From Schmidtea nova (taxonomy: Eukaryota): a stretch of DNA of 64,000 nucleotides. Below are positions 35,102 through 50,999 of the stretch, piece by piece. The first letter of the stretch is position 1. Every line of letters begins with the position of its first letter. Where the stretch lies: the NCBI GenBank assembly GCA_044892505.1, contig CM097882.1, positions 384,090,001 to 384,154,000 on the forward strand, in the 5' to 3' direction. Made by a program: the position numbers and the translations under genes. Under the pieces are notes generated by a model. That model was not told the origin of the DNA. It worked only from the letters and a program-made list of their open reading frames with translations, and searched no databases.

Positions 35102-35884
35102 TTAATTTAAGATTTTACTCCAAGCTGCTTTTACCCAACCAACAACATCCTGTAATTTAGGTTTGATATAATTACCTTTTACATTACGTTCGCTTTTGGT
35201 TTCAATATAGATGTTAATTTCTTCCCGAAGATAATTCTTAAATGGCTTATTTAATCCAATATCCAAACTTTGTAAATATGCTGTCATGCCGGATGGAATC
35301 ATGACTTGATCAATATTCTGATTCGAGAGATACTCTTTCATTGTATTAGGTCGGTGTGTACTGCCAGAGTCCCACACCAGTAGTTTCTTTTGATTGTGCC
35401 GTAAAACTGGTGGAAACATCAAATTGATCCATTTTTTAAAAACATCTTGGATACACCAAGCTTTTTCAGTTTCTAAGACGTAAATTCTAGAAATACAATT
35501 GATCATTTCCTTTGTTCCTTTCGTAATCAGCACAGGAGTTAATTTCTTGCCATTACAATCAATGGCAAGAATACATGTAACTCTTGTACTTTCATACCCG
35601 GTTGATAGAATACTGATCGACATAGACCCTTTTCGATCAATTGCTGTTTGTACAGCCTGGCCAAAAAATACCGATGTTTCGTCCATAGCAATTATATTTG
35701 ATGGTTGATATTGTTCAAAATTTAAATTATCCATAAATGTTTTAAAATATAATGCTTCTTTGATGATTTCCACGTCATCTAGCTTAAATAATGTCTTTGA
35801 CCTTCTTAAAGACAGTTTGTATCTGGTTAGAAATCCATCAATCCAGTGTTGTGAAGCTTTGAACTTATCTAAAGAGATATTAAA
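35102..35884 (-). pseudogene. pogo transposase, C-terminal part (CENP-B HTH end + DDE_1)
   Basis: Reads FKASQHWIDGFLTRYKLSLRR, IIAMDETSVFF, LLVWDSGSTH and LQSLDIGLNKPFK. It joins in frame with 51000-51320 when the insertion is excised (1,104 nt, 368 codons). Confidence 0.9.
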
Positions 35885-35888
35885 CTGT

Positions 35889-36932
35889 TGTTAGGGTTCG
35901 AGATCAAGGGATCTCGGGTTTTTGTAATTAAATATTATAAGTAAATAAATAAATATAAATAGCAATTAAGAATTACTATAAATAGATAGATAATAATTAT
36001 AGTAATAAATAAATAGATAAATAGTAATAGTAAATAAATAATTACTATAAATAAATATAGATTAAATATAGTAATAATTAAATAGTATATAATAAATATA
36101 GTAATAAATAAATACATGATAAATTTAAATAATAATAATAAGTTATATATAGTAATAATAAATTACTTTCAATAAAAATATAATAATTATAAATATTTTT
36201 AAAGGCAGTGGTAAAACACCACCGCAGTTTTAAGAGATGATGATGAGCGTAGTAGTGTGTAAACCTACTATCGTTCAAATTGTATATATACTGATTACAA
36301 AATCAGTTGAAAAAAACATAATTTTTACAGAAGTGAATTTTAGAACATAAGTGTTTACAGAATAGTGAATTTTAGTTCAAAGTTAAATTTGCGTGGAGAG
36401 AATAATTTTACAGAATTTCATTTGTGATAATTTTCCGAAATTGGAATAACCTTTGAGCAAATTATTAGCTGGTAAATTTTCTAGTTTGATTTAATTCTAT
36501 AAATCGATCACGGGGAAATAGTTATATTACTATTTTTCCTCTTCAGTAAAGTCGTTAAATAATAAATTATTAGAAGGGAAATTATTAGGTCACAGTGACA
36601 ACCATTTCTGGGTTGTCACTATCGCGATTAAACTACCGGGAAACCCCTCATCTTGTGTCCTTTCCTTTAGTCGGAGCTGTTGAGCCTTTTAGGTCCAGCT
36701 TTCGTTCTTAAACTCTGAGGACGGTTTGTATAACCGATTTTCTAACTTTTGCTTTGCAGCTATTTTTATTATATTGTACATTGATATACATATTTCACAA
36801 TACATTTTATTAAAAGGAATTAGTTCTTGTTTTCTTTACACACAACCTAAAACATATATTTTATTTATAACTATATAAGCGGATTATCGTTTGGAGTCCG
36901 ATAATCAAATCAAATCAAATCAAATCAAATCA

Positions 36933-36995
<63 letters not shown>

Positions 36996-37031
36996 CTGTG
37001 TTCGTCGTAAACCACTGATACGAACCGAACA
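35889..37031 (+). repeat. 5' LTR (1,143 bp)
   Basis: Identical to 49867-50999 in a line-by-line comparison except one substitution (GTAAAC/GTAATC) and 10 extra nt of (TA)n. Contains a TATATAAG at ~36872, a 10-bp hairpin at 36595-36621, (TCAAA)n and (TA)n. Confidence 0.97.
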
Positions 37032-37034
37032 TTT

Positions 37035-37052
37035 TGGTGAGCCCGACGTGAT
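37035..37052 (+). promoter_or_regulatory. PBS, tRNA-Trp
   Basis: TGGTGAGCCCGACGTGAT, 3 nt after the LTR; 17/18 match to the established tRNA-Trp PBS. Confidence 0.9.
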
Positions 37053-37123
37053 ACAATTATTATCAGTGGGCATATTGTTATATATACAAAATAGCTCCTA
37101 AAAAGACAAAAGTTGTGGAGGAC

Positions 37124-38002
37124 ATGGCTGAAGAGAATAATGTTTTTGCTAGATATCCCGCTTTACCTGTCAAGGCATTTAGCGGAGATCCAGGGGAATT
37201 TCCGGAGTTTATGTCAGAGTATTATCAGATGGCAAAGGCCTATGGGTATCCAGATGCAATAATGATACAAAGACTGCCAATTTACCTTAAGGGTATGGCA
37301 AGGGAAAACTACAATGATATTATGGCGTTACCAACAGCAGATAAACCAGGTACATGGGAAAAGATGAGAGAATCACTAACAGCTAGAATATTACCGGGAG
37401 ATTCAAGCAGAATTTTCCGACAACAATTTTATCATAGAAAACAGAATGCCAATGAGCATGTAGGAGAATTTTCTTATCAATTATTGTTACTAGCAGAAAG
37501 AGCATTTGGGCTCAGAACTACCTGGAATGATGCAACTAAAGCTATGGTTAAAGACCAATTATTAGCTGGATTCACAAATGTAATGAGAAATGCATTGATT
37601 CTCCACACGGGAGATGATTTTTGGGAATTAACCAGAAAAGCTGTCGTAATCGAAAGCAGCTTAGAAAAGGCTACCTCATTTATGGTAAATAATGAGAAGC
37701 CAGCAATTGAATGTTTTAACTGCCATAAGAAGGGGCATATATCAAAAGATTGCCACAGTAAGAAGGTAGCTGATACTCGTAGGAGTATTCAGTGTACTAA
37801 ATGTGGTATAAATAATCATAGTGTTGAGAACTGTAGAGTCACGAACTTGCAGTGTGATAAATGCAAACGCAGAGGGCATGTGGCTTCCGTTTGTAGAGTT
37901 AGGAATCTCCCCACGAATGGGAATTTTAATATTAAAAGGGATGATGTTAATTCATCAGGAAAGATAAATGCCACGGATGTGGAAAATTCGGGCATATTCT
38001 GA
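37124..38002 (+). CDS. Gag (capsid + three CCHC knuckles; a fourth knuckle lies in the -1 frame at 37969-38010)
   Basis: CFNCHKKGHISKDC, CTKCGINNHSVENC and CDKCKRRGHVASVC; capsid-like helical region. Confidence 0.93.
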   Translation: MAEENNVFARYPALPVKAFSGDPGEFPEFMSEYYQMAKAYGYPDAIMIQRLPIYLKGMARENYNDIMALPTADKPGTWEKMRESLTARILPGDSSRIFRQQFYHRKQNANEHVGEFSYQLLLLAERAFGLRTTWNDATKAMVKDQLLAGFTNVMRNALILHTGDDFWELTRKAVVIESSLEKATSFMVNNEKPAIECFNCHKKGHISKDCHSKKVADTRRSIQCTKCGINNHSVENCRVTNLQCDKCKRRGHVASVCRVRNLPTNGNFNIKRDDVNSSGKINATDVENSGIF

Positions 38003-41000
38003 GGTCGTGTCCTCAAAATCAGAGTAATAATATGAATAGTAGGACTACCAATAGTGGTAATGTCAGCAAGCCAAAAACTACGTTCATGGTCAATCACGAT
38101 AAAGAATTGACGTATTTGCAACAACTGGAAATGGAAATCCAGGAGGAGAAAAATCGATTAGCACGGCTAATGGATCGAGATGATACAGTTTTTATGATTT
38201 CAGCTGAGAAAAATCATGCTCACACAGATGAGCGAGGAACAGTTTTGATGAATACAATTGAAGAAATAAATGAGACTCCCACAGTTGGGCAAGAGACAGT
38301 TTTTATGATTTCAGCTGAGAAAAATCATGCTCACATGGATGGGCGAGGAACAGTTATAATGAATCCCATTGAGGAAAGCGATGATGCTCACACAGTTGGG
38401 CAAGGAACAGTTTTGATGATTTCAGCTGAGAAAAATCATGATGCTTACACAGATGAGCAAGGAAATAGTGAACCCATGGATTCCAGCAGCGAGAATCATG
38501 AGGTAATAGAATCAGAGACAAATTCTGATAATGATGACGAACCCAGTATGAGTACCATACTGAGCGAGTTCGACCAGGCTTTGTTCAAGGAAACAAAGGC
38601 CAAGAAAGGGTCAGATACCCTAGCAAAATGTTTTAAACTGGTGGATTCCAGATATGAGTATCAGCAGAGACTGACTAGAGAATTAGAGAAATTATCACAA
38701 GGTGATATCAAGAACAGTGAAATTGGAAAGATATTACAATTAATATCTCAGGTCGAAGATGATCCAAGGTATCATAGCGACATACATAAAATCCTACGAA
38801 AGATAGGAACTGCAATGGAGCATGAATGGGATCTTCAGGATTCGCATTTAAACATAAAACTTCCTCAGGAGCAGGAGTTTAACATCGACATGAATGTAAG
38901 ATGTCGAACAGACAAGTTGTCAGATACAATGATGAAATTGAAACATAATAGATATGATTTTTATTTATATGGAGAAAAGTTAGTAGTTGGGGAAACACTA
39001 CTACAAAATGGTGTATTACCAGGAAGGGTAACGAAACTCACAACGAAACTGACAGGAATATCGGTCCCAGTAGTGGATCAAGACAGTGTGTTTCTACTCA
39101 CACAAATGGAAATTGCACAGTTGGAGGAAGTCCAACAAATAGAGCAACGCCTGAAGATAGAGTTGCAGAAATCTCCGAGGGATGGAGAAACAATCAAGGA
39201 AATATTAGACTGGATGTTGGTATTGCGCATACCAGTAGAATCATTGGAGAGTATAATTCCTATTCTACTACCTGTAGTAAAGGAAACTAGTTCATTTCAA
39301 ACGGAAATAAAAATGTTAATGAGAAAAAATGGAACAGCAATACGTCATCAAGCACATCGACAAGGCATGATAACTTTAGACATTCGAATATCGGGAAAAG
39401 AACCCATGACGAGGTTATATCGTTGTTTTAGCAAAGTAATAACTTTGAGAAAAGATTTAATAGATACTGGGCAGACTACCGGTATATTCTTGATTATGAT
39501 TCATGGAGGGCAAGTGGATGATGATGAATATTTAGTAGATGTGGGATGTCTACCATTTGAAACGACAACAGTAGCAATCATTCCCGTAGAGCCACCTGAA
39601 TCTCAATGGTCAGCATTACGGTTACCAGATGAAATGGTCACTGGTAATGTTGAAACACAACCATTTAATGTAGATATCGATGCCGATAATCACGGAGAAG
39701 AGGAAATCAGACTCAATAATGAGGAAACTAACGTGGGAGCTTCAACTTCTCGGGCGGTAGAAACTATCAGGCCAGAATGGCAGACAAAGAAAGATAGGCG
39801 AGGAAGGCCTAGGAAAGATCAAATGAAACCTCCACCAACGGAGCAATTAAACCAAGAAACCATTAAACAGGTTCAGATGAAAACCCTGTCAGGAATAGCC
39901 AGGGATGTTGATATGAGAGACGAAGGTGTACATATACCAGAAAAATCTCTGACATGGAAGAGATTAAAACAGATCATAGGAATATTAAAGCCGGAATGGC
40001 AGATTACTCGGATTAAAGGAATTCAAGTGGATAAAGTGACACAGTCAATCGCGAAGACGATGAGGAGATTACCTAGAGGGGTACCGCAAAACGAGATACA
40101 GAGTATGTTAGAGACACTCATACAAGATGGGTTATCTAAAGGAAAAATAGTGACAGCATTATCTATGTTGATTCAAGATGCTTTATCCCGCACAGGCAAT
40201 GAGAAGAAACTTATTAATCGAGAAATAGACCAGATCACGGAGATAACGGAGCATTATCTTGGAACGTGGATGAGTGAAAATAACTTCTGGGAAGAGGAGA
40301 AACATAAACCACGATATGAATTTGTGGAAGAGGCTATGAATAACAACCACCTCGGAAATGGAGAAATGGGGAATATGACGAATATGATATTAATGTTTTT
40401 AGTAATGATGGGGATTATGAAACAGACAAACACAATGACAGCGTTTGATTGCAGTGATCCAAAGTTAGCTCGGATATATTCGCTCGTAGATGCAATTGAG
40501 TGCAAAGAGGCATATCCAGAGAAAGTCCAAACAGGAGAAAAGGTCGAATACTATGTCTACCAAGAAAGTGAATTCTTCAGAACTAAGATAAGAGAATGTA
40601 GAGTCCAAAGAGCGACGTTTGAATATTATTGTGGTTCACACAGCTATACAGCTTTTCTATCAGCCACTCTAATACCTAGACCAGTTAACATATTGCCAGA
40701 AGATTGTCTAGATGCCTTTCGAAAAGGTACTTTAAGAATCGATAACGAGGTAACCATCGCCGCGGAAGTAGTAAAAACACTGGGAGTAACAATTACACGA
40801 GGAGGATCAATCGGATCAGATGGTACCTGTACGGGAAGAAAGAAAACTCGCGGATCGGAGTGTGTAAGTTTTGTCGTAGATATTGAGGACTATTCAATCG
40901 AATTAAGAGAATACGAAGGGACGTTCGATGTATTATCAGGTAGATTAATGGCACACCCTCAGTGCCTTGCGAAATTTGGAAGCTGCAGAACAGGGGTCAT

Positions 41001-43308
41001 TACATTATTATACGATCAAATACTAGACCATTGCGAATTGTCATTACTAAAGAAAATTAATTTCCATAAGTTGAACGGGACAAAGTATCGAGATTTACCC
41101 AAAAGAGAAAGAATTTGGGATAAAGAAAAGACGTTGAAAAGGATCAACAAACAGCAAAAAGAGGATATTAGTGAGGAAATCACACCTCTAGTATTAGTAT
41201 CAGAAGATAAGAAAGATGCAATCAGATTTGTCAGAAAAGATAAGAAGACAAAATGCGGAAAAGTGGTGTACGAGACCAACTATAAAGGATTATATTTGTC
41301 AAAAACATTTATCCAAAAAGCCAAGAATATTCACAGCCAGGATATCAAAATCACGAACTATATAAATAATAAAATAGATTATTTATATCATGATCTGCAA
41401 GGACAAATGCAGGAAATGTATCAGGAAGTAATACTCAATGATTGCAAACTAAATCGCGAAATAGTTCGAAATCGATTAGCGATATCAATCGTGAATCCGG
41501 ATCTAGTGACACCTATGTTGCTAGAAGATGGAATGTTTGGCAGAATTATGGGGGAAGCTATATACAGCTATCAATGTCAACCCATAGAGGTACAATTAAC
41601 ACGGTATAATGAATGTACTCTAGAATTACCAGTGTCATATCAAAACAAAATACGATTTGTAATGCCAGTAACGAGGAGACTTTTGGATGAAAAACAAAAG
41701 CCTCAACCTTCAATTTGCAATCCAGCAATATCGCCGTTATACAAGGTAAATGATAGATGGATCTCATTACCTGACCGAAAACCATCTAATAGAAAGGTGG
41801 AAACATTGGAAGTCACGAAACTCGAGGAAAACATGGAATTTAAATCACTCGATGAATTATCACAAGGAGGAATTTACACTCCAGCAGACATTGAGGAGGC
41901 AAGACAGACATTGCTATTCCCTCAAGTAAGAGAAAGAGGTATCACAGAAATCATAAGAACAATTTACCAAGCAAACGAAATGAGACCAGATTACAATTTA
42001 TTATTTGGTCCAGATCATTATAAAGAAGCAGCTAAAAATGTGATGATGAAAATATGGGGAAGGTTTACCAATTTTGGTATTTTCGTGGCAGGCTGCTCAG
42101 GAATATATGCAATATTCGTAATTCTAAAGTTAATAATAACACAATTAATTTCCACATACAGTATATTCAAAATCGGTGGATGGTCTTGGAAGTTGATACT
42201 AGGATTATGTCCTATGTGTGCGGAATTTGCATTGTTTAAACACCATCGTAAAGAAATAAAGACAATCAAACAGAGAAGCTTGGTAAAACACGAGATTATT
42301 GGAATCGAAATGGAGGGTAATACAAGTTATCGGGACGATAACAATTCGGAAGGAGGAGGTAATGGAGACTCTCTTAATACAGTTCAGAGGCAAAGTAGAA
42401 GTCGAAAAAGAAACTACAATAAAAAACCGAATCATCAATTAAGGAAAATGAAATATCGGGATTATCAACCACCTTACGAAGCGACAAAACAGATTTTCGA
42501 CAAAAGTATGATTTCAGAAGATGAATACGATAGTGCAGACCAGAAATTTGCAATCAATACAGCATCGCCTAGATTGAAAAGAAGCCCAAGATATATGCAA
42601 TTGCCATATCTTAGAAGTTTACCAACAGCGCCAAAGGGGGAATCGCCAGAGTTTCAAAAGACATCAGGAGAAGGCAAGCCAAGTTATGCTTTAACTTTAC
42701 CAAGGAACAAAATTTACACTTCTAAACATCAACAAATTCTCGACAAAGATGCTCGAGAGACAGGTAAAAGCATATCATTATCGTTAGAAAATGAAGGGAA
42801 ACTGTATCCTATCGAGTCGTTAGAAGCAATAAAAGCTAAATTCAAGGAATATAATCCAAAATTGAGTGATACCGAACAAGATGAGGCAGAGAAATTCAGA
42901 GCAAATACCATCGGGATAACGCATGCTACTATTTTGATGGCAAATGGGGTGAACTTGGATAAGAAACCCATGATAAAGATAAAAATAAACAGACACACAG
43001 TTAATGCAGTGATAGATTCAGGAGCCGACGGCACTATCATAGAGGCAACACTATTAAATCAAAAAGAATTGGAATCAATGGAAACCTCTAGAGTTTCGCT
43101 AACAGGTGCTACAGGCACATCATTGAATATTATTGGTACTCTAGCTTGTAACATCAAGCTATGTGACCAAGAATTTCGTCATGATATTATAGTCATGAGA
43201 ATTTGTCCAGTAGAATGTCTACTAGGAATGGATCTTTTAAGAAGATTAAAAGGAGTTGTGTTCGATTGTGCTACCGGATTGTTAGTTAGATCAATCGGTA
43301 AGAAATGA
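37951..43308 (+). CDS. Polyprotein part 2: 4th CCHC - 37-aa repeats - helical/ubiquitin-like modules - signal peptide - gB/chuvirus-type glycoprotein - TM - aspartic protease
   Basis: The frame is open from 37951 (CHGCGKFGHILRSC). Glycoprotein motifs: AFDC, YYCGSHS, YINNKIDYLY, GEAIYSYQC, LPV, P.TR, GGIY. TM at ~42060-42240. Protease AVIDSGADGT (Asp at 43015) with LLGMDLL. Confidence 0.85.
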   Translation, partial: FIRKDKCHGCGKFGHILRSCPQNQSNNMNSRTTNSGNVSKPKTTFMVNHDKELTYLQQLEMEIQEEKNRLARLMDRDDTVFMISAEKNHAHTDERGTVLMNTIEEINETPTVGQETVFMISAEKNHAHMDGRGTVIMNPIEESDDAHTVGQGTVLMISAEKNHDAYTDEQGNSEPMDSSSENHEVIESETNSDNDDEPSMSTILSEFDQALFKETKAKKGSDTLAKCFKLVDSRYEYQQRLTRELEKLSQGDIKNSEIGKILQLISQVEDDPRYHSDIHKILRKIGTAMEHEWDLQDSHLNIKLPQEQEFNIDMNVRCRTDKLSDTMMKLKHNRYDFYLYGEKLVVGETLLQNGVLPGRVTKLTTKLTGISVPVVDQDSVFLLTQMEIAQLEEVQQIEQRLKIELQKSPRDGETIKEILDWMLVLRIPVESLESIIPILLPVVKETSSFQTEIKMLMRKNGTAIRHQAHRQGMITLDIRISGKEPMTRLYRCFSKVITLRKDLIDTGQTTGIFLIMIHGGQVDDDEYLVDVGCLPFETTTVAIIPVEPPESQWSALRLPDEMVTGNVETQPFNVDIDADNHGEEEIRLNNEETNVGASTSRAVETIRPEWQTKKDRRGRPRKDQMKPPPTEQLNQETIKQVQMKTLSGIARDVDMRDEGVHIPEKSLTWKRLKQIIGILKPEWQITRIKGIQVDKVTQSIAKTMRRLPRGVPQNEIQSMLETLIQDGLSKGKIVTALSMLIQDALSRTGNEKKLINREIDQITEITEHYLGTWMSENNFWEEEKHKPRYEFVEEAMNNNHLGNGEMGNMTNMILMFLVMMGIMKQTNTMTAFDCSDPKLARIYSLVDAIECKEAYPEKVQTGEKVEYYVYQESEFFRTKIRECRVQRATFEYYCGSHSYTAFLSATLIPRPVNILPEDCLDAFRKGTLRIDNEVTIAAEVVKTLGVTITRGGSIGSDGTCTGRKKTRGSECVSFVVDIEDYSIELREYEGTFDVLSGRLMAHPQCLAKFGSCRTGVITLLYDQILDHCELSLLKKINFHKLNGTKYRDLPKRERIWDKEKTLKRINKQQKEDISEEITPLVLVSEDKKDAIRFVRKDKKTKCGKVVYETNYKGLYLSKTFIQKAKNIHSQDIKITNYINNKIDYLYHDLQGQMQEMYQEVILNDCKLNREIVRNRLAISIVNPDLVTPMLLEDGMFGRIMGEAIYSYQCQPIEVQLTRYNECTLELPVSYQNKIRFVMPVTRRLLDEKQKPQPSICNPAISPLYKVNDRWISLPDRKPSNRKVETLEVTKLEENMEFKSLDELSQGGIYTPADIEEARQTLLFPQVRERGITEIIRTIYQANEMRPDYNLLFGPDHYKEAAKNVMMKIWGRFTNFGIFVAGCSGIYAIFVILKLIITQLISTYSIFKIGGWSWKLILGLCPMCAEFALFKHHRKEIKTIKQRSLVKHEIIGIEMEGNTSYRDDNNSEGGGNGDSLNTVQRQSRSRKRNYNKKPNHQLRKMKYRDYQPPYEATKQIFDKSMISEDEYDSADQKFAINTASPRLKRSPRYMQLPYLRSLPTAPKGESPEFQKTSGEGKPSYALTLPRNKIYTSKHQQILDKDARETGKSISLSLENEGKLYPIESLEAIKAKFKEYNPKLSDTEQDEAEKFRANTIGITHATILMANGVNLDKKPMIKIKINRHTVNAVIDSGADGTIIEATLLNQKELESMETSRVSLTGATGTSLNIIGTLACNIKLCDQEFRHDIIVMRICPVECLLGMDLLRRLKGVVFDCATGLLVRSIGKK

Positions 43309-46300
43309 AAAGTTTATAATGATGATACAGTTTTCATCGATCATACAATGATAATACCACCCAGAGCAGAAACAGTATGTTTCGTGTCCACTAGCGAACA
43401 GTGGGAAGGAGAAGTTGTATTCGAACCAGATGAAAGGTTCTCAGCAAAATATAATCTACCAATTACGCATAGCGTTGGTAAAGTTGAAAATGGCAGAATA
43501 CCAATTCGGGTAGCCAATTTAGATATAAAACCATTAAAATTGTATCCAGATACAAGAGTAGGGAGAGTATCAAAGTCTGATCAATTACCGAATGGAGGAT
43601 CTGTCCTGACAATAAAGGCAGAAAATAGAGAACCAGACATTGAGTACTATGATGCGCCAACGGCAAATAGTAAAGCTCTTTCACGAAGAGAGAATATCCA
43701 AGTCAACATGTTATTAAGAAAATATGATCAGGTATTCGCCAAGCACGAATATGATTTGGGAAAGACGAACTTGTTGGAACATGAAATTGTTCTTAACAAT
43801 ACGAAACCAATAAAACTGAGACCGTATCGAATTCCGTTTAGCTTGGAAGAACCTGTCGATAAGCAGGTAAAACTGATGTTAAAACATAACATCATCAGGC
43901 ATAGTAAATCACCATACCAGTCACCAATGATAGTAGTGGCAAAAAAGGATGGAACAGTACGACTATGCAACGATTATCGAATGGTAAACGAAGCAACTTG
44001 CAAGGATAGTCACCCATTACCATTACTGGATTACATCTACGGTCGTATGAGAAATTCAAAATATTTCTCAGTATTGGATGCTCAGAAGGGGTTTTACCAA
44101 ATCAAGTTAAAAGAGGAGACAATACCAATTACGGCTTTTTCTACAAGCCTTGGACACTTCGAATATACAGTAATGCCATTTGGTCTCACAGGAGCGCCGG
44201 CAACGTTTCAAAGAGCAATGAATCTAATGTTAATGGATGTTCATCATGCAATGGTATAAATAGATGACATCATAGTATTTTCTCCAGATTTGGAAAAACA
44301 TTTAGAACATTTAGAGGACGTATTCAAAAGGTTAATTAATGCAAATCTTAAGGTAAAACCATCAAAATGTAAATGGGCCGAATCAGAAGTAGTCTATGTC
44401 GGTCACATTATCTCGAAGGATGGAGTAAAACCAGATCCAGCAAATGTTGAGAAAGCAAAGAATTTTCCAGAGCCAAAGACAGTCAAACATATTAAAGGGT
44501 TTTTGGGCTTAGTGGGATATTACAGGAAGTTCATCAGGAACTTTTCGGCAATAGCATTTCCTTTAACACAATTAGAGGGCAAAAATGTCAAATTTGTATG
44601 GGGAAAAGAGAAACAGGAAGCATTTGATATGCTAAAGAGGATGCTCGTGGAACCTCCTATATTACGGTTTCCAGATTTTGAGAAACAATTTTTGGTCATG
44701 ACAGACGCCAGCACTCGGGGTATTGGTGCTGTGTTAGGTCAGAGAGATGACCTAGGAGACGAATACGCCATAGCGTATGCTAGCAGAGGATTAAAACCAC
44801 ATGAAAAGAATTACGCAGTTATCGAATTAGAAGCATTAGCAATTGTGTATGCTATACACCAATTCAGGACATATTTATGGGGTCGAAAGATCATTGTGTA
44901 TACGGATCATAGACCATTACAGTGGTTAACAAAGCATACTATGGATACATCAAAATTGGTTAGATGGGCACTGATCTTGCAGCCATACGACATCGAAATA
45001 CATTACCGAAAAGGACACCAAAATGGGAATGCAGATGCATTTTCTCGAATGGACCAGGGTGATGAAGCAGAAGATGTCAAAGAAGGAAGATTAGAAGGAA
45101 CAATCTTCGCACTTACAAGAGAAGCAAACAGACTCGCGGATTTAATGGCAGCACAACAATCGGATGAAGAGATAAACCAAATCAGACAGGCTTTAGAAGC
45201 AAAGTTCATACCGACGGAATTTAATAAATATTGGGAGAAAAATCGAGACAAATTTATCCTTGAAGAAGGATTAGTCAAATATGTGGATGTAAGGGATAAT
45301 GTCAAAATGGTCCCTAAGAAATATCGCGAAGCTTTGATGTTACAATATCATGATGGAGCACTGGGAGGGCATTTGTCTGCCAGGAAAACATTGTCAAGGT
45401 TGAAGCAGAAATATTTCTGGCCGACAATCAAACAAGACATACAGGAATGGTGTCAGACATGTAAGATCTGTATCACCAGGAGAAATACGGGGAAGAAACC
45501 GCATGTGCCAATGAAACCAATGCCAGTACCATCCACACCGATGGAAATGACGGCAATGGATGTTTTAGGGCCATTCAAAGAATCAAATAGTGGTAACAAA
45601 TACATATTAGTATTTTGCGATTACTTGACAAAATGACCGGAGGCTTATCCGATACCGAATCACAAGGCAGATACGATAGCCAGGATTTTCGTAGAGCAAA
45701 TCGTTTTTAGGTATGGAGTACCTACAAAACTACTAACAGATAGAGGAGCAGATTTCATGAGTAATCTGTTAAAAGGAATAAATGATTATTTCGACATTTT
45801 AAAATTGAATACCTCTCCATACCATCCACAAACAGACGGATTGGTAGAGAGATTTAACGGAACGCTTGCAAATATGCTAGCATCATACGTAAATTCAGGG
45901 CAAACGGATTGGGATATACATATCCCATCATGCCTATTCGCATATAGAAATGCTGTTCATGAGGGTACGGGACAGACGCCGTTCTATCTCATGTATTTAA
46001 GGCAAAGTAAAATGCCTATAGATTTGTTGTTCTTCCCAAAAGCAACACAGTATCTAGACCAAGAAAATTACCTCATGGAAATGAGAGAAAGAATGCAAGA
46101 AGCATGGACAAAAGCCGGTCTTAGTATAAAATTCAGCCAGGAAGCGTCGAAAGATTATCATGATAAGAAAGCCAAAGGACATGGCATGTTAGTTGGAGAC
46201 AAGGTGATGTTGGAAAGCCATTATAATAAAAAGGGCTTATCACCAAAATTAATGAGAAACTTCAAAGGACCGTATGAGGTTTTGAGAACCACAGACACAA

Positions 46301-47391
46301 ATTTAATCTTGCAATTAGTAGCAAATAGAAAAGCTGAACCAATAATGGTACATGCTAACAGATGCAAGAAAGTTGCGGTCACAGAGAAAGATCAGGTTAA
46401 GAAAAGGGAGGATAAAGGGTCAGAACCAGTCTCAGACCGATATCCATTACGATCAAGGGGCGTGCCAAAATCAGTTACATTTTTGGTAATAATAAGTTGC
46501 CTCATATCCTGTGTAAAGACATTTGTTCCCACAGCGGTTCAAATCCAAGATCTCGCATTCAGAAGATCTTTTCAGGAATTTCGGATAATATCATTAGCTG
46601 AAAATGATACCAAATTCAAGTTCTCGTTTTGCGAACGACGTTGTTTCCATTTTACATTGGATTCAAACACAAGAGTGAAAGTCATAAAGGACTTACGAGC
46701 AGAAAAGGAATATTTATTAGATATACTTGTTCAACATTTTATGTTTGGACGATGGTCAGATTTTTCAAAGTCACAATGGAAGCTGAAGACAGCGGATTTC
46801 AAAAGGAAAGTTAGAATAAATATCCAACAAGGTATGATTACCTTCAGCCAACCAAAACAAGGAGTGGATAGGGTAAAGATAGAAATCCATTCCGACAAGG
46901 AAATAGTACAAGAATTGTGGCTAAATGAAGATATTGAGAAACAAAATCTCAAGTGGAACAGCTCAGTGGAGTGGGAAGCTCATATCACTTATATGAATAA
47001 TAAACAAAAGCCCGGAGTCGATGAATGGAATGAGGTATTTTATGAAGTAATCTCTTTGAAATTACCTCAATCATCGACGACAACGAAATCAGTTACATCC
47101 TTGATACGGAAAGAAAGTTACGTCATTCATCCGGCAATATGGCAGAGATTGAAAGGATTGAAAATGGTAAAACCAACAGTATCAACAGAAAGCTATATTA
47201 AAAGTTGTCAGTGTGAAATTAATGAAGTAAACCCCATTACTCACTTGGGAAAATTACCCGTTGGGGTATGGATTATTACGTCAGCAGTATTAGCTATGAT
47301 CACTACATTGATAGCAATGGGAGTTTGGATGAAACTATTCTTCAGCCAGGCTATTGAGTCGGTTGATGGGATTATGATGACGAGATTATGA
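43309..47391 (+). pseudogene. Pol (RT, RNase H, integrase with HHCC and GPY) plus a C-terminal membrane protein; same frame throughout, interrupted by stops at 43306, 44257 and 45634
   Basis: RLCNDYR, LDAQKGFYQI, V*IDD (YIDD), TDASTRGIG, YTDHRPL, HDGALGGH..CQTC, LTDRGADF, NGLVERFN and KGPY. Confidence 0.95.
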
Positions 47392-47577
47392 CAATTACAG
47401 ATAAAATCACATATTTGTATTTATATATATATTAAAATCTATAATCTTGTTGAGCTCCGAGTAGCATTAACTTACAGCATAAGTAGATCCCGTAAATCGA
47501 GATTTATGCATTTCTTTTTAGCCAATATTGGCATATCAGTATATCTGATATTAACGTTAATTATTTTTCTTTCAGAT

Positions 47578-49542
47578 ATGAAGCATCAAGTGTCACAATA
47601 CAAGCAGCGTTATAGCACTATCGATGTGCAAACAGTACAGAAGGAAAAATTGATTTATCGAAACATCGAAAAAGCGATATCCGCAGAAGCACGGAAAGGT
47701 CGTCGCTATTGGTATTACGGGCACTGCACCGGCATCCCGAACAATTTTAAGTTTCTTGGATCACCTAAGAGACAAATGTGCATAGTCACAATTACCAGCC
47801 GGGAGAACACCCGGTTGACTGAACACATGGCGGAATTTAACAGATCAACATTTACTCACCATCTCCTGATTCACGCGATCAACAAACCCTTTACAATCTT
47901 CATGGCAGGTGCCACGGGACCCATCCTACTTCAACCAGAATCAACTCTAGAAATTAGTAACGGAGATGGCAGAGAAAAGAATATCTCCATCCAATGTGAC
48001 GGATATAATACTATTGTGGTATTAGAGATTTTGGAACCCAGCAAGGCAGTGCAATCATTGTGGAAAAATGAACCTGCCTGGACCTATAATGTGAATGAGA
48101 ACGATCTCAAGTCATTCAAATCCTTTGTTCGGATGAATTTGCACCCCAATCAAGAAGATAAATTGTCAATATTTGTTGCAGCGCATTACGCAACCTTGCG
48201 AGATTATTTAAAGCCAGCTTTGGTGGCTGTTTCGATAGCAAACTACTGTGGTGATTTAATACTAAACACGGTGGTTACACCCAGAAACCAGGTCAAACAT
48301 TACCAATCGCACGCGCATGGTATGACCGAAAAAGAAATCATCGGACAATTTGACGGAGAGGATTGCGCAGACCGTATTAGAAAATTATGTGATGGGAAAA
48401 TCCTAATAGTTCTCCAAGTCAACGACTTCTTGGAAGCAGTCCAGTTACATCCTCAACGAGTTTTGGGCATTAGGGAACTAGGAGCAGCAAAATGCCTGGA
48501 AGCGAGAGAACTAAAGAAATGTAACGGACATTATCGACTCGCGTATTTATCAAAGTCAATTCTCGAAAAGGAAGAACTAAACCGTTCAGATCTGAAAACG
48601 GAAAACGACGTGGAAACGACACGTAATATTTACCTTAAACTGAGAGAAGTTTGGGTAGATGACATTACCCCAGGTAATCTTAGTGGGACGATTACATCAG
48701 AAGTCAAAATGGTTCATACAATACAGCCGCAAGAAACGAGTAAAAGGAAAGCTATTGAGAGCTTACCCCAGGAACAGCCATTATCAACCAAATTGCAAAA
48801 GATAGTTAAGGAAGAATCACTATCCCCTCCAGCTATATCCTTAGCTGATGAAGACGATTACGCCACCTGTGAAAGCGAGGGTGAGGAGCAAACAGAGATG
48901 CGTTTAACTTTACACGGAGACAGCCGTACAATTACAAAGATCGTGTCAGAAAATCCACCAAAGAAAGAGAACAAGCTCTTGGAAAAAGTTACTAAGACTT
49001 TTCAAAAACTGACTTCAGTGGAGAAGTCGTCCCCAAAGAAAAGTCAAGAACCTGTTGTAAGGTTACAAGATCTAAAGATCAAAAAGAAAGTACCAAACCC
49101 TATCTCGACGGAAGACAAAGACTTAATCGAAACAGCATTCGTTCCTCCCGATATGGAACAGATTCCTGAGGTTAAGGGCGAACCTATCATTATAAGAGAA
49201 AGGGATTTCGTTGGAACGGGGAATTCAGCAAAGACACCCCAGGATTTGGATAACGAAGACCCTAGTTTTTGGCAGCGACCAGAAAGGAATTGGGTATCTC
49301 GGATAAAAGAATACGACGGGAAACCGGTACACCAATCATCAGTTTCAAACTTCCCTTACTATGGCGTATTGGAGGCCAACGGAAAATCATACGTGATTTC
49401 GTCTTTGGTATATAAGGAAGTCGAAACACGTGAAACATTGGTGGTCAGCTATAGACCAGATATAGTGGAAGACCGTATCAAGAACGAACAAGCGCATATT
49501 CGCAAGAGAGCAGCTCAAAACCTATTCGCAAAGGATAACTAG
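47578..49542 (+). CDS. Accessory ORF3 (~654 aa), probably spliced: degenerate AlkB-like + degenerate ISG20/REX4-like exonuclease + low-complexity tail
   Basis: Strong acceptor TTATTTTTCTTTCAG|ATATG. The exonuclease-like block VAVSIANYCGDLILNTVVTPRNQVKHYQSHAHGMTEKEI...IRKLCDGKILI parallels ISG20. The AlkB-like call is weaker. Confidence 0.65.
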   Translation: MKHQVSQYKQRYSTIDVQTVQKEKLIYRNIEKAISAEARKGRRYWYYGHCTGIPNNFKFLGSPKRQMCIVTITSRENTRLTEHMAEFNRSTFTHHLLIHAINKPFTIFMAGATGPILLQPESTLEISNGDGREKNISIQCDGYNTIVVLEILEPSKAVQSLWKNEPAWTYNVNENDLKSFKSFVRMNLHPNQEDKLSIFVAAHYATLRDYLKPALVAVSIANYCGDLILNTVVTPRNQVKHYQSHAHGMTEKEIIGQFDGEDCADRIRKLCDGKILIVLQVNDFLEAVQLHPQRVLGIRELGAAKCLEARELKKCNGHYRLAYLSKSILEKEELNRSDLKTENDVETTRNIYLKLREVWVDDITPGNLSGTITSEVKMVHTIQPQETSKRKAIESLPQEQPLSTKLQKIVKEESLSPPAISLADEDDYATCESEGEEQTEMRLTLHGDSRTITKIVSENPPKKENKLLEKVTKTFQKLTSVEKSSPKKSQEPVVRLQDLKIKKKVPNPISTEDKDLIETAFVPPDMEQIPEVKGEPIIIRERDFVGTGNSAKTPQDLDNEDPSFWQRPERNWVSRIKEYDGKPVHQSSVSNFPYYGVLEANGKSYVISSLVYKEVETRETLVVSYRPDIVEDRIKNEQAHIRKRAAQNLFAKDN

Positions 49543-49831
49543 CATTTCTGCTACGTTCAATCCAAGGTCTAGCAATAAGCTATGACAACTATCAATCAAA
49601 CAATTAGCATTTCGGCTATGTAATCAACAATCCAACTCTTACAGACAGTTATTATTTGATATCGATTGTGATCAACATTACTTATGTATTATGTGTTTTA
49701 TGAGACTCATTTGTTTTTATGCGATTTATTTTAATTTTTATTGACCACGTGCATTTAATGTATATATATGCATGTGTTGTTATTTTATTTTTATTTTATG
49801 GCTGCGTAACCTTCTTGTCTTTTCCGCTTTA

Positions 49832-49866
49832 ATTTTCGGGACGAAAATCTTGTTAGGGGGAAGACA
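49832..49866 (+). promoter_or_regulatory. GGA-loop hairpin and polypurine tract before the 3' LTR
   Basis: ATTTTCG-GGA-CGAAAAT, then AGGGGGAAGACA immediately before TGTTAGGG. Confidence 0.85.
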
Positions 49867-50910
49867 TGTTAGGGTTCGAGATCAAGGGATCTCGGGTTTT
49901 TGTAATTAAATATTATAAGTAAATAAATAAATATAAATAGCAATTAAGAATTACTATAAATAGATAGATAATAATTATAGTAATAAATAAATAGATAAAT
50001 AGTAATAGTAAATAAATAATTACTATAAATAAATATAGATTAAATATAGTAATAATTAAATAGTATATAATAAATATAGTAATAAATAAATACATGATAA
50101 ATTTAAATAATAATAATAAGTTATATATAGTAATAATAAATTACTTTCAATAAAAATATAATAATTATAAATATTTTTAAAGGCAGTGGTAAAACACCAC
50201 CGCAGTTTTAAGAGATGATGATGAGCGTAGTAGTGTGTAAACCTACTATCGTTCAAATTGTATATATACTGATTACAAAATCAGTTGAAAAAAACATAAT
50301 TTTTACAGAAGTGAATTTTAGAACATAAGTGTTTACAGAATAGTGAATTTTAGTTCAAAGTTAAATTTGCGTGGAGAGAATAATTTTACAGAATTTCATT
50401 TGTGATAATTTTCCGAAATTGGAATAACCTTTGAGCAAATTATTAGCTGGTAAATTTTCTAGTTTGATTTAATTCTATAAATCGATCACGGGGAAATAGT
50501 TATATTACTATTTTTCCTCTTCAGTAAAGTCGTTAAATAATAAATTATTAGAAGGGAAATTATTAGGTCACAGTGACAACCATTTCTGGGTTGTCACTAT
50601 CGCGATTAAACTACCGGGAAACCCCTCATCTTGTGTCCTTTCCTTTAGTCGGAGCTGTTGAGCCTTTTAGGTCCAGCTTTCGTTCTTAAACTCTGAGGAC
50701 GGTTTGTATAACCGATTTTCTAACTTTTGCTTTGCAGCTATTTTTATTATATTGTACATTGATATACATATTTCACAATACATTTTATTAAAAGGAATTA
50801 GTTCTTGTTTTCTTTACACACAACCTAAAACATATATTTTATTTATAACTATATAAGCGGATTATCGTTTGGAGTCCGATAATCAAATCAAATCAAATCA
50901 AATCAAATCA

Positions 50911-50963
<53 letters not shown>

Positions 50964-50999
50964 CTGTGTTCGTCGTAATCCACTGATACGAACCGAACA
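49867..50999 (+). repeat. 3' LTR (1,133 bp)
   Basis: Direct repeat of 35889-37031. Confidence 0.97.

Follow-up and report, generated by a model that had tools for sequence, protein, structure and literature searches.

Two domains encoded within the polyprotein of a Ty3/gypsy retroelement of Schmidtea nova fold, according to structure prediction, as beta-grasp ubiquitin-like domains (UBLs), and each of them makes up the latter half of a unit that is duplicated and in which a helical bundle precedes the UBL. We are highly confident of the anatomy of this cassette. A one-line HHpred note on the giant planarian element Burro is turned here into a defined, foldable unit of 165 amino acids. The unit is common throughout a clade of envelope-bearing gypsy elements, some of them compact and recently active, and is relevant to the way in which these elements deal with death and defence pathways of the host.

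The element and its gene order

The UBLs belong to a 15.1-kb element at positions 35889-50999 of the window, i.e. of the whole 64,000-nucleotide stretch of DNA that was analysed. It has the following traits of Ty3/gypsy elements (Metaviridae): LTRs of the form TG...CA, a target-site duplication, and the order protease (PR), reverse transcriptase (RT), RNase H, integrase (IN). The following features were located.

35889..37031 (+), 5′ LTR, TG...CA, with the target-site duplication CTGT just before it (98.9% identity to the 3′ LTR over 1,151 columns)
37035..37052 (+), primer-binding-site-like 18-mer, presumably a candidate tRNA-Trp primer binding site (sequence)
37124..38002 (+), Gag, with a capsid-like part and CCHC knuckles (Pfam Retrotrans_gag E 0.016, zf-CCHC E 6e-6; ORF layout)
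38182..38460 (+), 111-nt in-frame tandem repeat (family D5), a linker between the knuckles and helical bundle 1
38614..38814 (+), helical bundle 1, three predicted helices (AlphaFold model; weak TFIIS-N-like signal)
38836..39057 (+), UBL 1, predicted beta-grasp without di-Gly (profile, AlphaFold, Foldseek, VIA)
39103..39348 (+), helical bundle 2, four predicted helices, modelled jointly with UBL 2 (AlphaFold, pTM 0.81 with the UBL)
39364..39591 (+), UBL 2, predicted beta-grasp with a conserved DDDEYLxDxGC motif, without di-Gly (profile, AlphaFold, VIA)
39790..39816 (+), AT-hook-like RGRP motif (motif; Pfam AT_hook E 0.027 in homolog P0015)
39847..40299 (+), likely Bcl-2-like domain, which contains the claimed third UBL at 39865-39894 (Pfam, PDB profile, relatives)
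40375..40434 (+), putative internal signal/anchor sequence ahead of Env (hydrophobic segment)
40435..42270 (+), Env, a Monjiviricetes-type fusion glycoprotein with a C-terminal membrane span at 42079-42135 (PF24664 E 2e-89; hydropathy)
42958..47391 (+), Pol: protease, spacer, RT, RNase H, integrase and hydrophobic tail (Pfam, ORF layout, hydropathy)
47392..49542 (+), second ORF (716 aa) with a membrane span and an ISG20L2-like exonuclease stretch (E 9.5e-4; hydropathy)
49867..50999 (+), 3′ LTR, with CTGT just after it (LTR ends read; empty-site comparison)

Read by Pfam and by models, the gene order is Gag, two bundle+UBL units, AT-hook, Bcl-2-like domain, signal sequence, Env and Pol, and the UBLs thus stand between the Gag and the Env of a retroelement, as the earlier note had stated. 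The peptides quoted there were also found where it had placed them, all in one frame of a 1,785-aa ORF (37951-43308). In the window copy the frame is broken after Gag, near 37,950-38,000, and Pol carries three in-frame stops. A search of the genome with the element gave at least 122 scored matches, all counts being lower bounds; at least 107 of these belong to the window element's own family (68-100% identity), at least 26 of the 107 lie in open frames of at least 3,400 aa, and at least 15 matches represent sister families (42-45% identity). The ORF of the open copies comprises about 3,450 aa (3,446-3,453 aa).

Contigs from two of two sequencing runs, both of a single study, join the flanks 35883 and 50999 without the element, which indicates that an empty allele exists and that the insertion is young. 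On the reverse strand, a 262-aa ORF (35102-35890) that by eye resembles a pogo/Tigger DDE transposase ends at the LTR boundary; the element may therefore have inserted into a pogo/Tigger-like ORF. A hydrophobic 11-mer (KD 2.5-3.3) precedes Env in all seven sequences in which the start of Env was located. The spacer between PR and RT has a size fitting a dUTPase-like domain, and no Pfam or PDB match to such a domain was found in it. Downstream of integrase, the stretch 46459-47343 (+) possibly encodes a second small membrane protein within the polyprotein, as it has a hydrophobic segment and, C-terminally, a membrane span. As for the exonuclease stretch of the second ORF, DEDDy exonuclease ORFs are known from LTR elements of rotifers (PMC5408684).

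The earlier note knew of no comparable module in Metaviridae. However, the position of a UBL between Gag and Bcl-2/Env is not new, since a SUMO-like domain has been reported for the planarian Burro elements, in which a Ubi2/SUMO-like domain (PF11976) lies between MATH and BCL-2 and env lies in frame between gag and pol (PMC6431247). The likeness to Burro/GYPSM1, a giant planarian gypsy, covers Gag with CCHC knuckles, the Ubi2/SUMO-like and BCL2-like domains, an in-frame mononegavirus-type env and Pol, all in one polyprotein. The differences lie in size (15.1 kb and an ORF of about 3,450 aa, against more than 30 kb and 4,873 aa for Burro), in cargo, as the ORFs of the window element gave no BIR, MATH or ankyrin Pfam match whereas Burro has such cargo, and in the cassette itself: the window element has two UBLs, each with a bundle, and an AT-hook-like motif, whereas the available passages of the Burro account give one Ubi2/SUMO-like motif and none of these (PMC6431247). 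Because the giant size and the BIR/MATH/ankyrin cargo are absent, and because Burro was compared by its published description only, the window element is filed as a compact Burro-like relative and not as Burro. Envelope-bearing gypsy and BEL/Pao elements with a chuvirus-like glycoprotein resemble it in having the same class of captured fusion glycoprotein beside gypsy Pol; the accessible parts of that paper make no mention of ubiquitin, planarian or Burro (PMC13524379). Expression of BURRO1 after PIWI knockdown has also been addressed (PMC8532177). The literature search yielded no account of the fused bundle, its duplication or its occurrence in several families, which Grohme et al. 2018, supplements or Repbase may cover.

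Two ubiquitin-like domains and the unit they belong to

Up to three UBLs had been claimed, with fold prediction and profile searches as the proposed check, and by this check the first two are confirmed. For UBL 1, an AlphaFold model built on nine natural copies has a pLDDT of 72-90 at 38836-39057; the Foldseek matches listed for it are all ubiquitin, SUMO, UBL or UBX, the VIA Z score is 10.0 (rmsd 1.3-2.3 Å across 71-76 residues), and a seven-sequence profile ranks a redesigned ubiquitin first (E 0.002), followed by ubiquilin-2 and Rad23B. The joint model of bundle 2 and UBL 2, consisting of four helices and a beta-grasp, has a mean pLDDT of 89 and a pTM of 0.81. UBL 2 itself reaches a pLDDT of 93-98 and a VIA Z of 11.9 (rmsd 1.5 Å across 74 residues), and its 26-sequence profile matches ISG15 at E 3.7e-5. 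Six rows of this alignment are related families of the same genome (G000), and the other 20 were taken from 29 proteins returned by a search of protein representatives, of which six have a Pfam match to Env or to a Gag knuckle and three others look like generic proteins with several UBLs.

In the structural alignments the UBLs are 10-14% identical to ubiquitin. Searches with single sequences gave no Pfam family for either UBL, no phmmer match in the PDB, and none among 3,225 candidates when longer proteins were sought. The pairwise matches to ubiquitin on which the earlier note had relied are at chance level: against host ubiquitin, 489, 630 and 495 of 2000 shuffles scored equally well for the three quoted matches, and such similarity was dropped as evidence for this reason.

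The third UBL (KQVQMKTLSG, 39865-39894) is rejected, as it lies in the leading helix of the Bcl-2-like domain. The best matches to a profile of the region are Bcl-2 proteins and not UBLs, the peptide is modelled as a helix with low confidence, and in sister families it is replaced. Of 300 shuffled ORFs, three contain a match of this quality to ubiquitin residues 1-10; when any sampled ubiquitin 10-mer is allowed, 45 of 100 do.

The domain at 39847..40299 is, judging from sequence profiles, likely of Bcl-2 type. The window copy matches Pfam Bcl-2 (PF00452) at E 0.028 and 15.4 bits, under the cut-off of 31.4, which one relative (L120) passes at 32.2 bits, and a profile of the region finds related elements with a Bcl-2 domain at or near the Pfam cut-off. 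In a PDB profile search the region matched CNPV058 (E 0.077) and Bcl-xL (E 0.12). The Trp residues of BH2 align in the window copy, the BH1-like segment is altered and reads SKGK, and the model of the region has a pLDDT below 60.

That the two bundle+UBL units arose by tandem duplication follows from the profile of unit 2, which recovers the first unit of the window (iE 2.9e-5; the search set was small) and finds two units in each of the public homologs P0005, P0015, P0019 and P0040. In a tree of 27 units, the first and the second units of families A-D form separate groups; the deep branches and bootstrap values are unsettled, so that one as well as several duplications would fit the tree. Families E and F have one unit, families G and H two, and a 25-kb element has one weak copy.

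The earlier note had also suggested looking at presence and dN/dS in sibling elements, and both speak for a maintained unit. It is present in all nine related element families examined in the genome, and in all five of those found independently of it, by searching the genome for Bcl-2, Env or BIR. For the two bundles and the two UBLs, dN/dS lies at 0.07-0.19 between families C and D, with 0.19 for UBL 1 and 0.10 for UBL 2; the corresponding UBL values within family B are 0.18 and 0.08. These ratios indicate that the unit is under purifying selection. Values among family-A copies (0.01-0.03) were set aside, since the copies had been chosen as best protein matches on the same region, and family A compared with other families is saturated.

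The bundle matches no Pfam family. PDB profiles gave no family for it, the top rows being leucine-rich repeats and designed helices, an Atlas search gave no usable match, and the fold-search lists for the bundle+UBL model are filled by matches of the UBL.

Two 25-kb elements with the unit (L146-L150 and L151-L155, G000:C1) have LTRs of 4.1-4.4 kb that are 99.96-99.98% identical. Their ORFs encode bundle+UBL-protease-ankyrin, RING-TRAF-MATH and BIR-RING, and their UBL matches PF11976 at E 0.0025. No RT or Env ORF of at least 250 aa was found in them, and for this reason they are probably non-autonomous. A BIR search of the genome gave 150 scored matches, mostly 399-aa ORFs, and a MATH search gave four.

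Possible roles of the cassette

Of the readings weighed here, the likeliest is that the cassette is a cytosolic host-binding scaffold damping ubiquitin-dependent death or defence signalling in the particle-making cell. We regard it as possible and hold it tentatively; it is ranked first because Bcl-2 accompanies the unit, as do genes of TRAF and IAP type in the giant element. A single ORF would yield the cassette in a 1:1 ratio with Gag and Env. Its position ahead of the Env signal sequence suggests that it would stay cytosolic, tethered to the membrane in the manner of tail-anchored Bcl-2, until the protease of the element releases it. Partners would dock on the family-specific acidic DDDEY surface and not on a ubiquitin-type I44 patch: D, E and Y of the DDDEYLxDxGC motif are each retained in 24 of 25 rows of UBL 2, and most of the acidic DDDEYL motif is lost in UBL 1 of the window. 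Motif positions matching ubiquitin L50, D52, L56 and D58 may be structural in any UBL. The pathway targeted would be the one hinted at by what else these elements carry (Bcl-2, TRAF-MATH, BIR-RING, ankyrin); the link of the cassette to death signalling is one of guilt by association, and the same theme of apoptosis and ubiquitination has been drawn for Burro (PMC6431247). An AT-hook suggests a place in the nucleus and not at a membrane, which counts against the scaffold, as do the loss of the motif in UBL 1, the weak Bcl-2 assignment of this copy and a bundle that matches no family.

Alternatively, the cassette could be a structural assembly linker that joins the capsid to the membrane-anchored Env precursor, with the acidic UBL binding basic nucleocapsid or RNA, much as Ubl1 of coronavirus nsp3 binds N. 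The cassette has a fixed place, after the knuckles and ahead of the Env signal sequence, in each of families A, B, E, G and H, the acidic motif is conserved, and Gag starts without an obvious matrix part, all of which would suit such a linker. We nevertheless consider it unlikely, as the unit is retained in the 25-kb element, where no Env or RT ORF of at least 250 aa was found, and its copy number varies between one and two.

The AT-hook raises another, rather unlikely, alternative, in which the bundle would be of TFIIS-N/LEDGF-IBD type and would act jointly with the AT-hook to anchor the pre-integration complex on AT-rich, transcribed chromatin. The RGRP motif follows the UBL in 10 of the 16 sequences examined, and among these it was not found in families F, G and H or in the giant ORF, which weakens the case. 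Against the TFIIS-N profile of the host, window bundle 1 scores 15.9 bits, a value equalled by none of 500 shuffles, and for 6 of 23 bundles at most 1% of shuffles score as high, although shuffling destroys helical periodicity and is a weak control. The profile-profile score of 16.8 exceeds that of unrelated helical controls (13.7-14.2), but the hhalign probability is just 0.4-3.4%, no Pfam match to Med26 was found in the bundles, and no TFIIS-N structure appears among the PDB profile matches. The fullest form of this proposal, an element-encoded LEDGF-like integration-targeting factor (TFIIS-N/IBD bundle, UBL and AT-hook) fused to a membrane-anchored Bcl-2 within a Gag-Env-Pol polyprotein, is considered quite improbable. 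Elsewhere in the genome (G000:C1:216.19-216.25 Mb), a tandem array of short TFIIS-N-domain ORFs accounts for 28 of the 52 Med26 matches.

The role proposed in the earlier note, a decoy or adaptor that engages ubiquitin receptors of the proteasome or of ESCRT during budding, fits true UBL folds whose shape is near that of the Rad23, Dsk2, ubiquilin and midnolin UBLs, and an element that is enveloped. More generally, the element UBLs resemble integral (type II) UBLs such as those of Rad23, Dsk2/ubiquilin, Rad60/NIP45 and UHRF1, which are beta-grasp domains within larger proteins and have no conjugatable end. They differ from these in their DDDEYLxDxGC motif, in being fused behind a helix bundle without a match, and in their surface. 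The position of UBL 2 equivalent to I44 is occupied by nine residue types in 25 rows (M 10, S 3, I 3, L 2, W 2, V 2, and Q, E and P), and that equivalent to L8 is Leu in none of 22 rows, ubiquitin numbering being assigned by ungapped register from the conserved Gly, without superposition. The alignment thus suggests that the conserved L8/I44 hydrophobic patch of Rad23/Dsk2-type proteasome-binding UBLs is absent from UBL 2. Since these positions vary freely, and identity to ubiquitin is as low as given above, the decoy is judged a doubtful explanation.

Finally, a pestivirus-type processing signal cut by host deubiquitinases, for which the location of the UBLs inside a polyprotein and the BVDV precedent speak (PMC8310069), is very improbable: as the earlier note had observed, di-Gly is missing, both after the last strand of UBL 2 (none of 26 rows, 23 of which extend to that point) and at the variable ends of UBL 1 (none of seven rows), and the reading as a cleavable ubiquitin tag is therefore rejected.

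A BEL/Pao family with ubiquitin before Gag

Pestivirus ubiquitin insertions resemble the window UBLs in placing a ubiquitin fold inside a viral polyprotein, but they are near-identical copies of host ubiquitin cleaved by host hydrolases (PMC8310069), whereas the element UBLs are 10-14% identical and have no GG. The pestivirus analogy drawn in the earlier note fails here, as it needs a cleavable C-terminus. The real analogue of the pestivirus insertions is a different, high-copy BEL/Pao family outside the window, in which ubiquitin lies directly before Gag (L073:5729-10000 with L074, L076:6176-10000 with L077, L078:5160-9998, and L057-L072).

A ubiquitin search of the genome gave 150 scored matches, the top 14 being host ubiquitin genes. 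Sixteen of the remaining 136 were inspected, and 12 of them consist of an Hsp70 fragment, ubiquitin, and then sequence that in three longer loci starts a BEL/Pao Gag-Pol. This ubiquitin is identical to that of the host at 69-72 of 76 positions, with GG intact in 11 of the 12, and paired LTRs flank the copies. By analogy, it is likely a pestivirus-style processing signal; cleavage after GG would release Gag regardless of the upstream cargo, as in cytopathic pestiviruses. The literature search found no paper on this ubiquitin-Gag family, which, with its captured host mRNA upstream, may be the more surprising lead. Related chimeras (L059, L066, L067; L163-L165) join an Hsp90-like fragment, recognised by eye, to ubiquitin and a short Gag-like start, and have no Pol or LTR pair in the 10-kb stretches examined. 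In the BEL/Pao family, the host mRNA pieces are captured in frame upstream of ubiquitin and start inside the LTR, and the cargo varies between copies, comprising Hsp70, a HECT fragment (Pfam) and the start of calmodulin (by eye).
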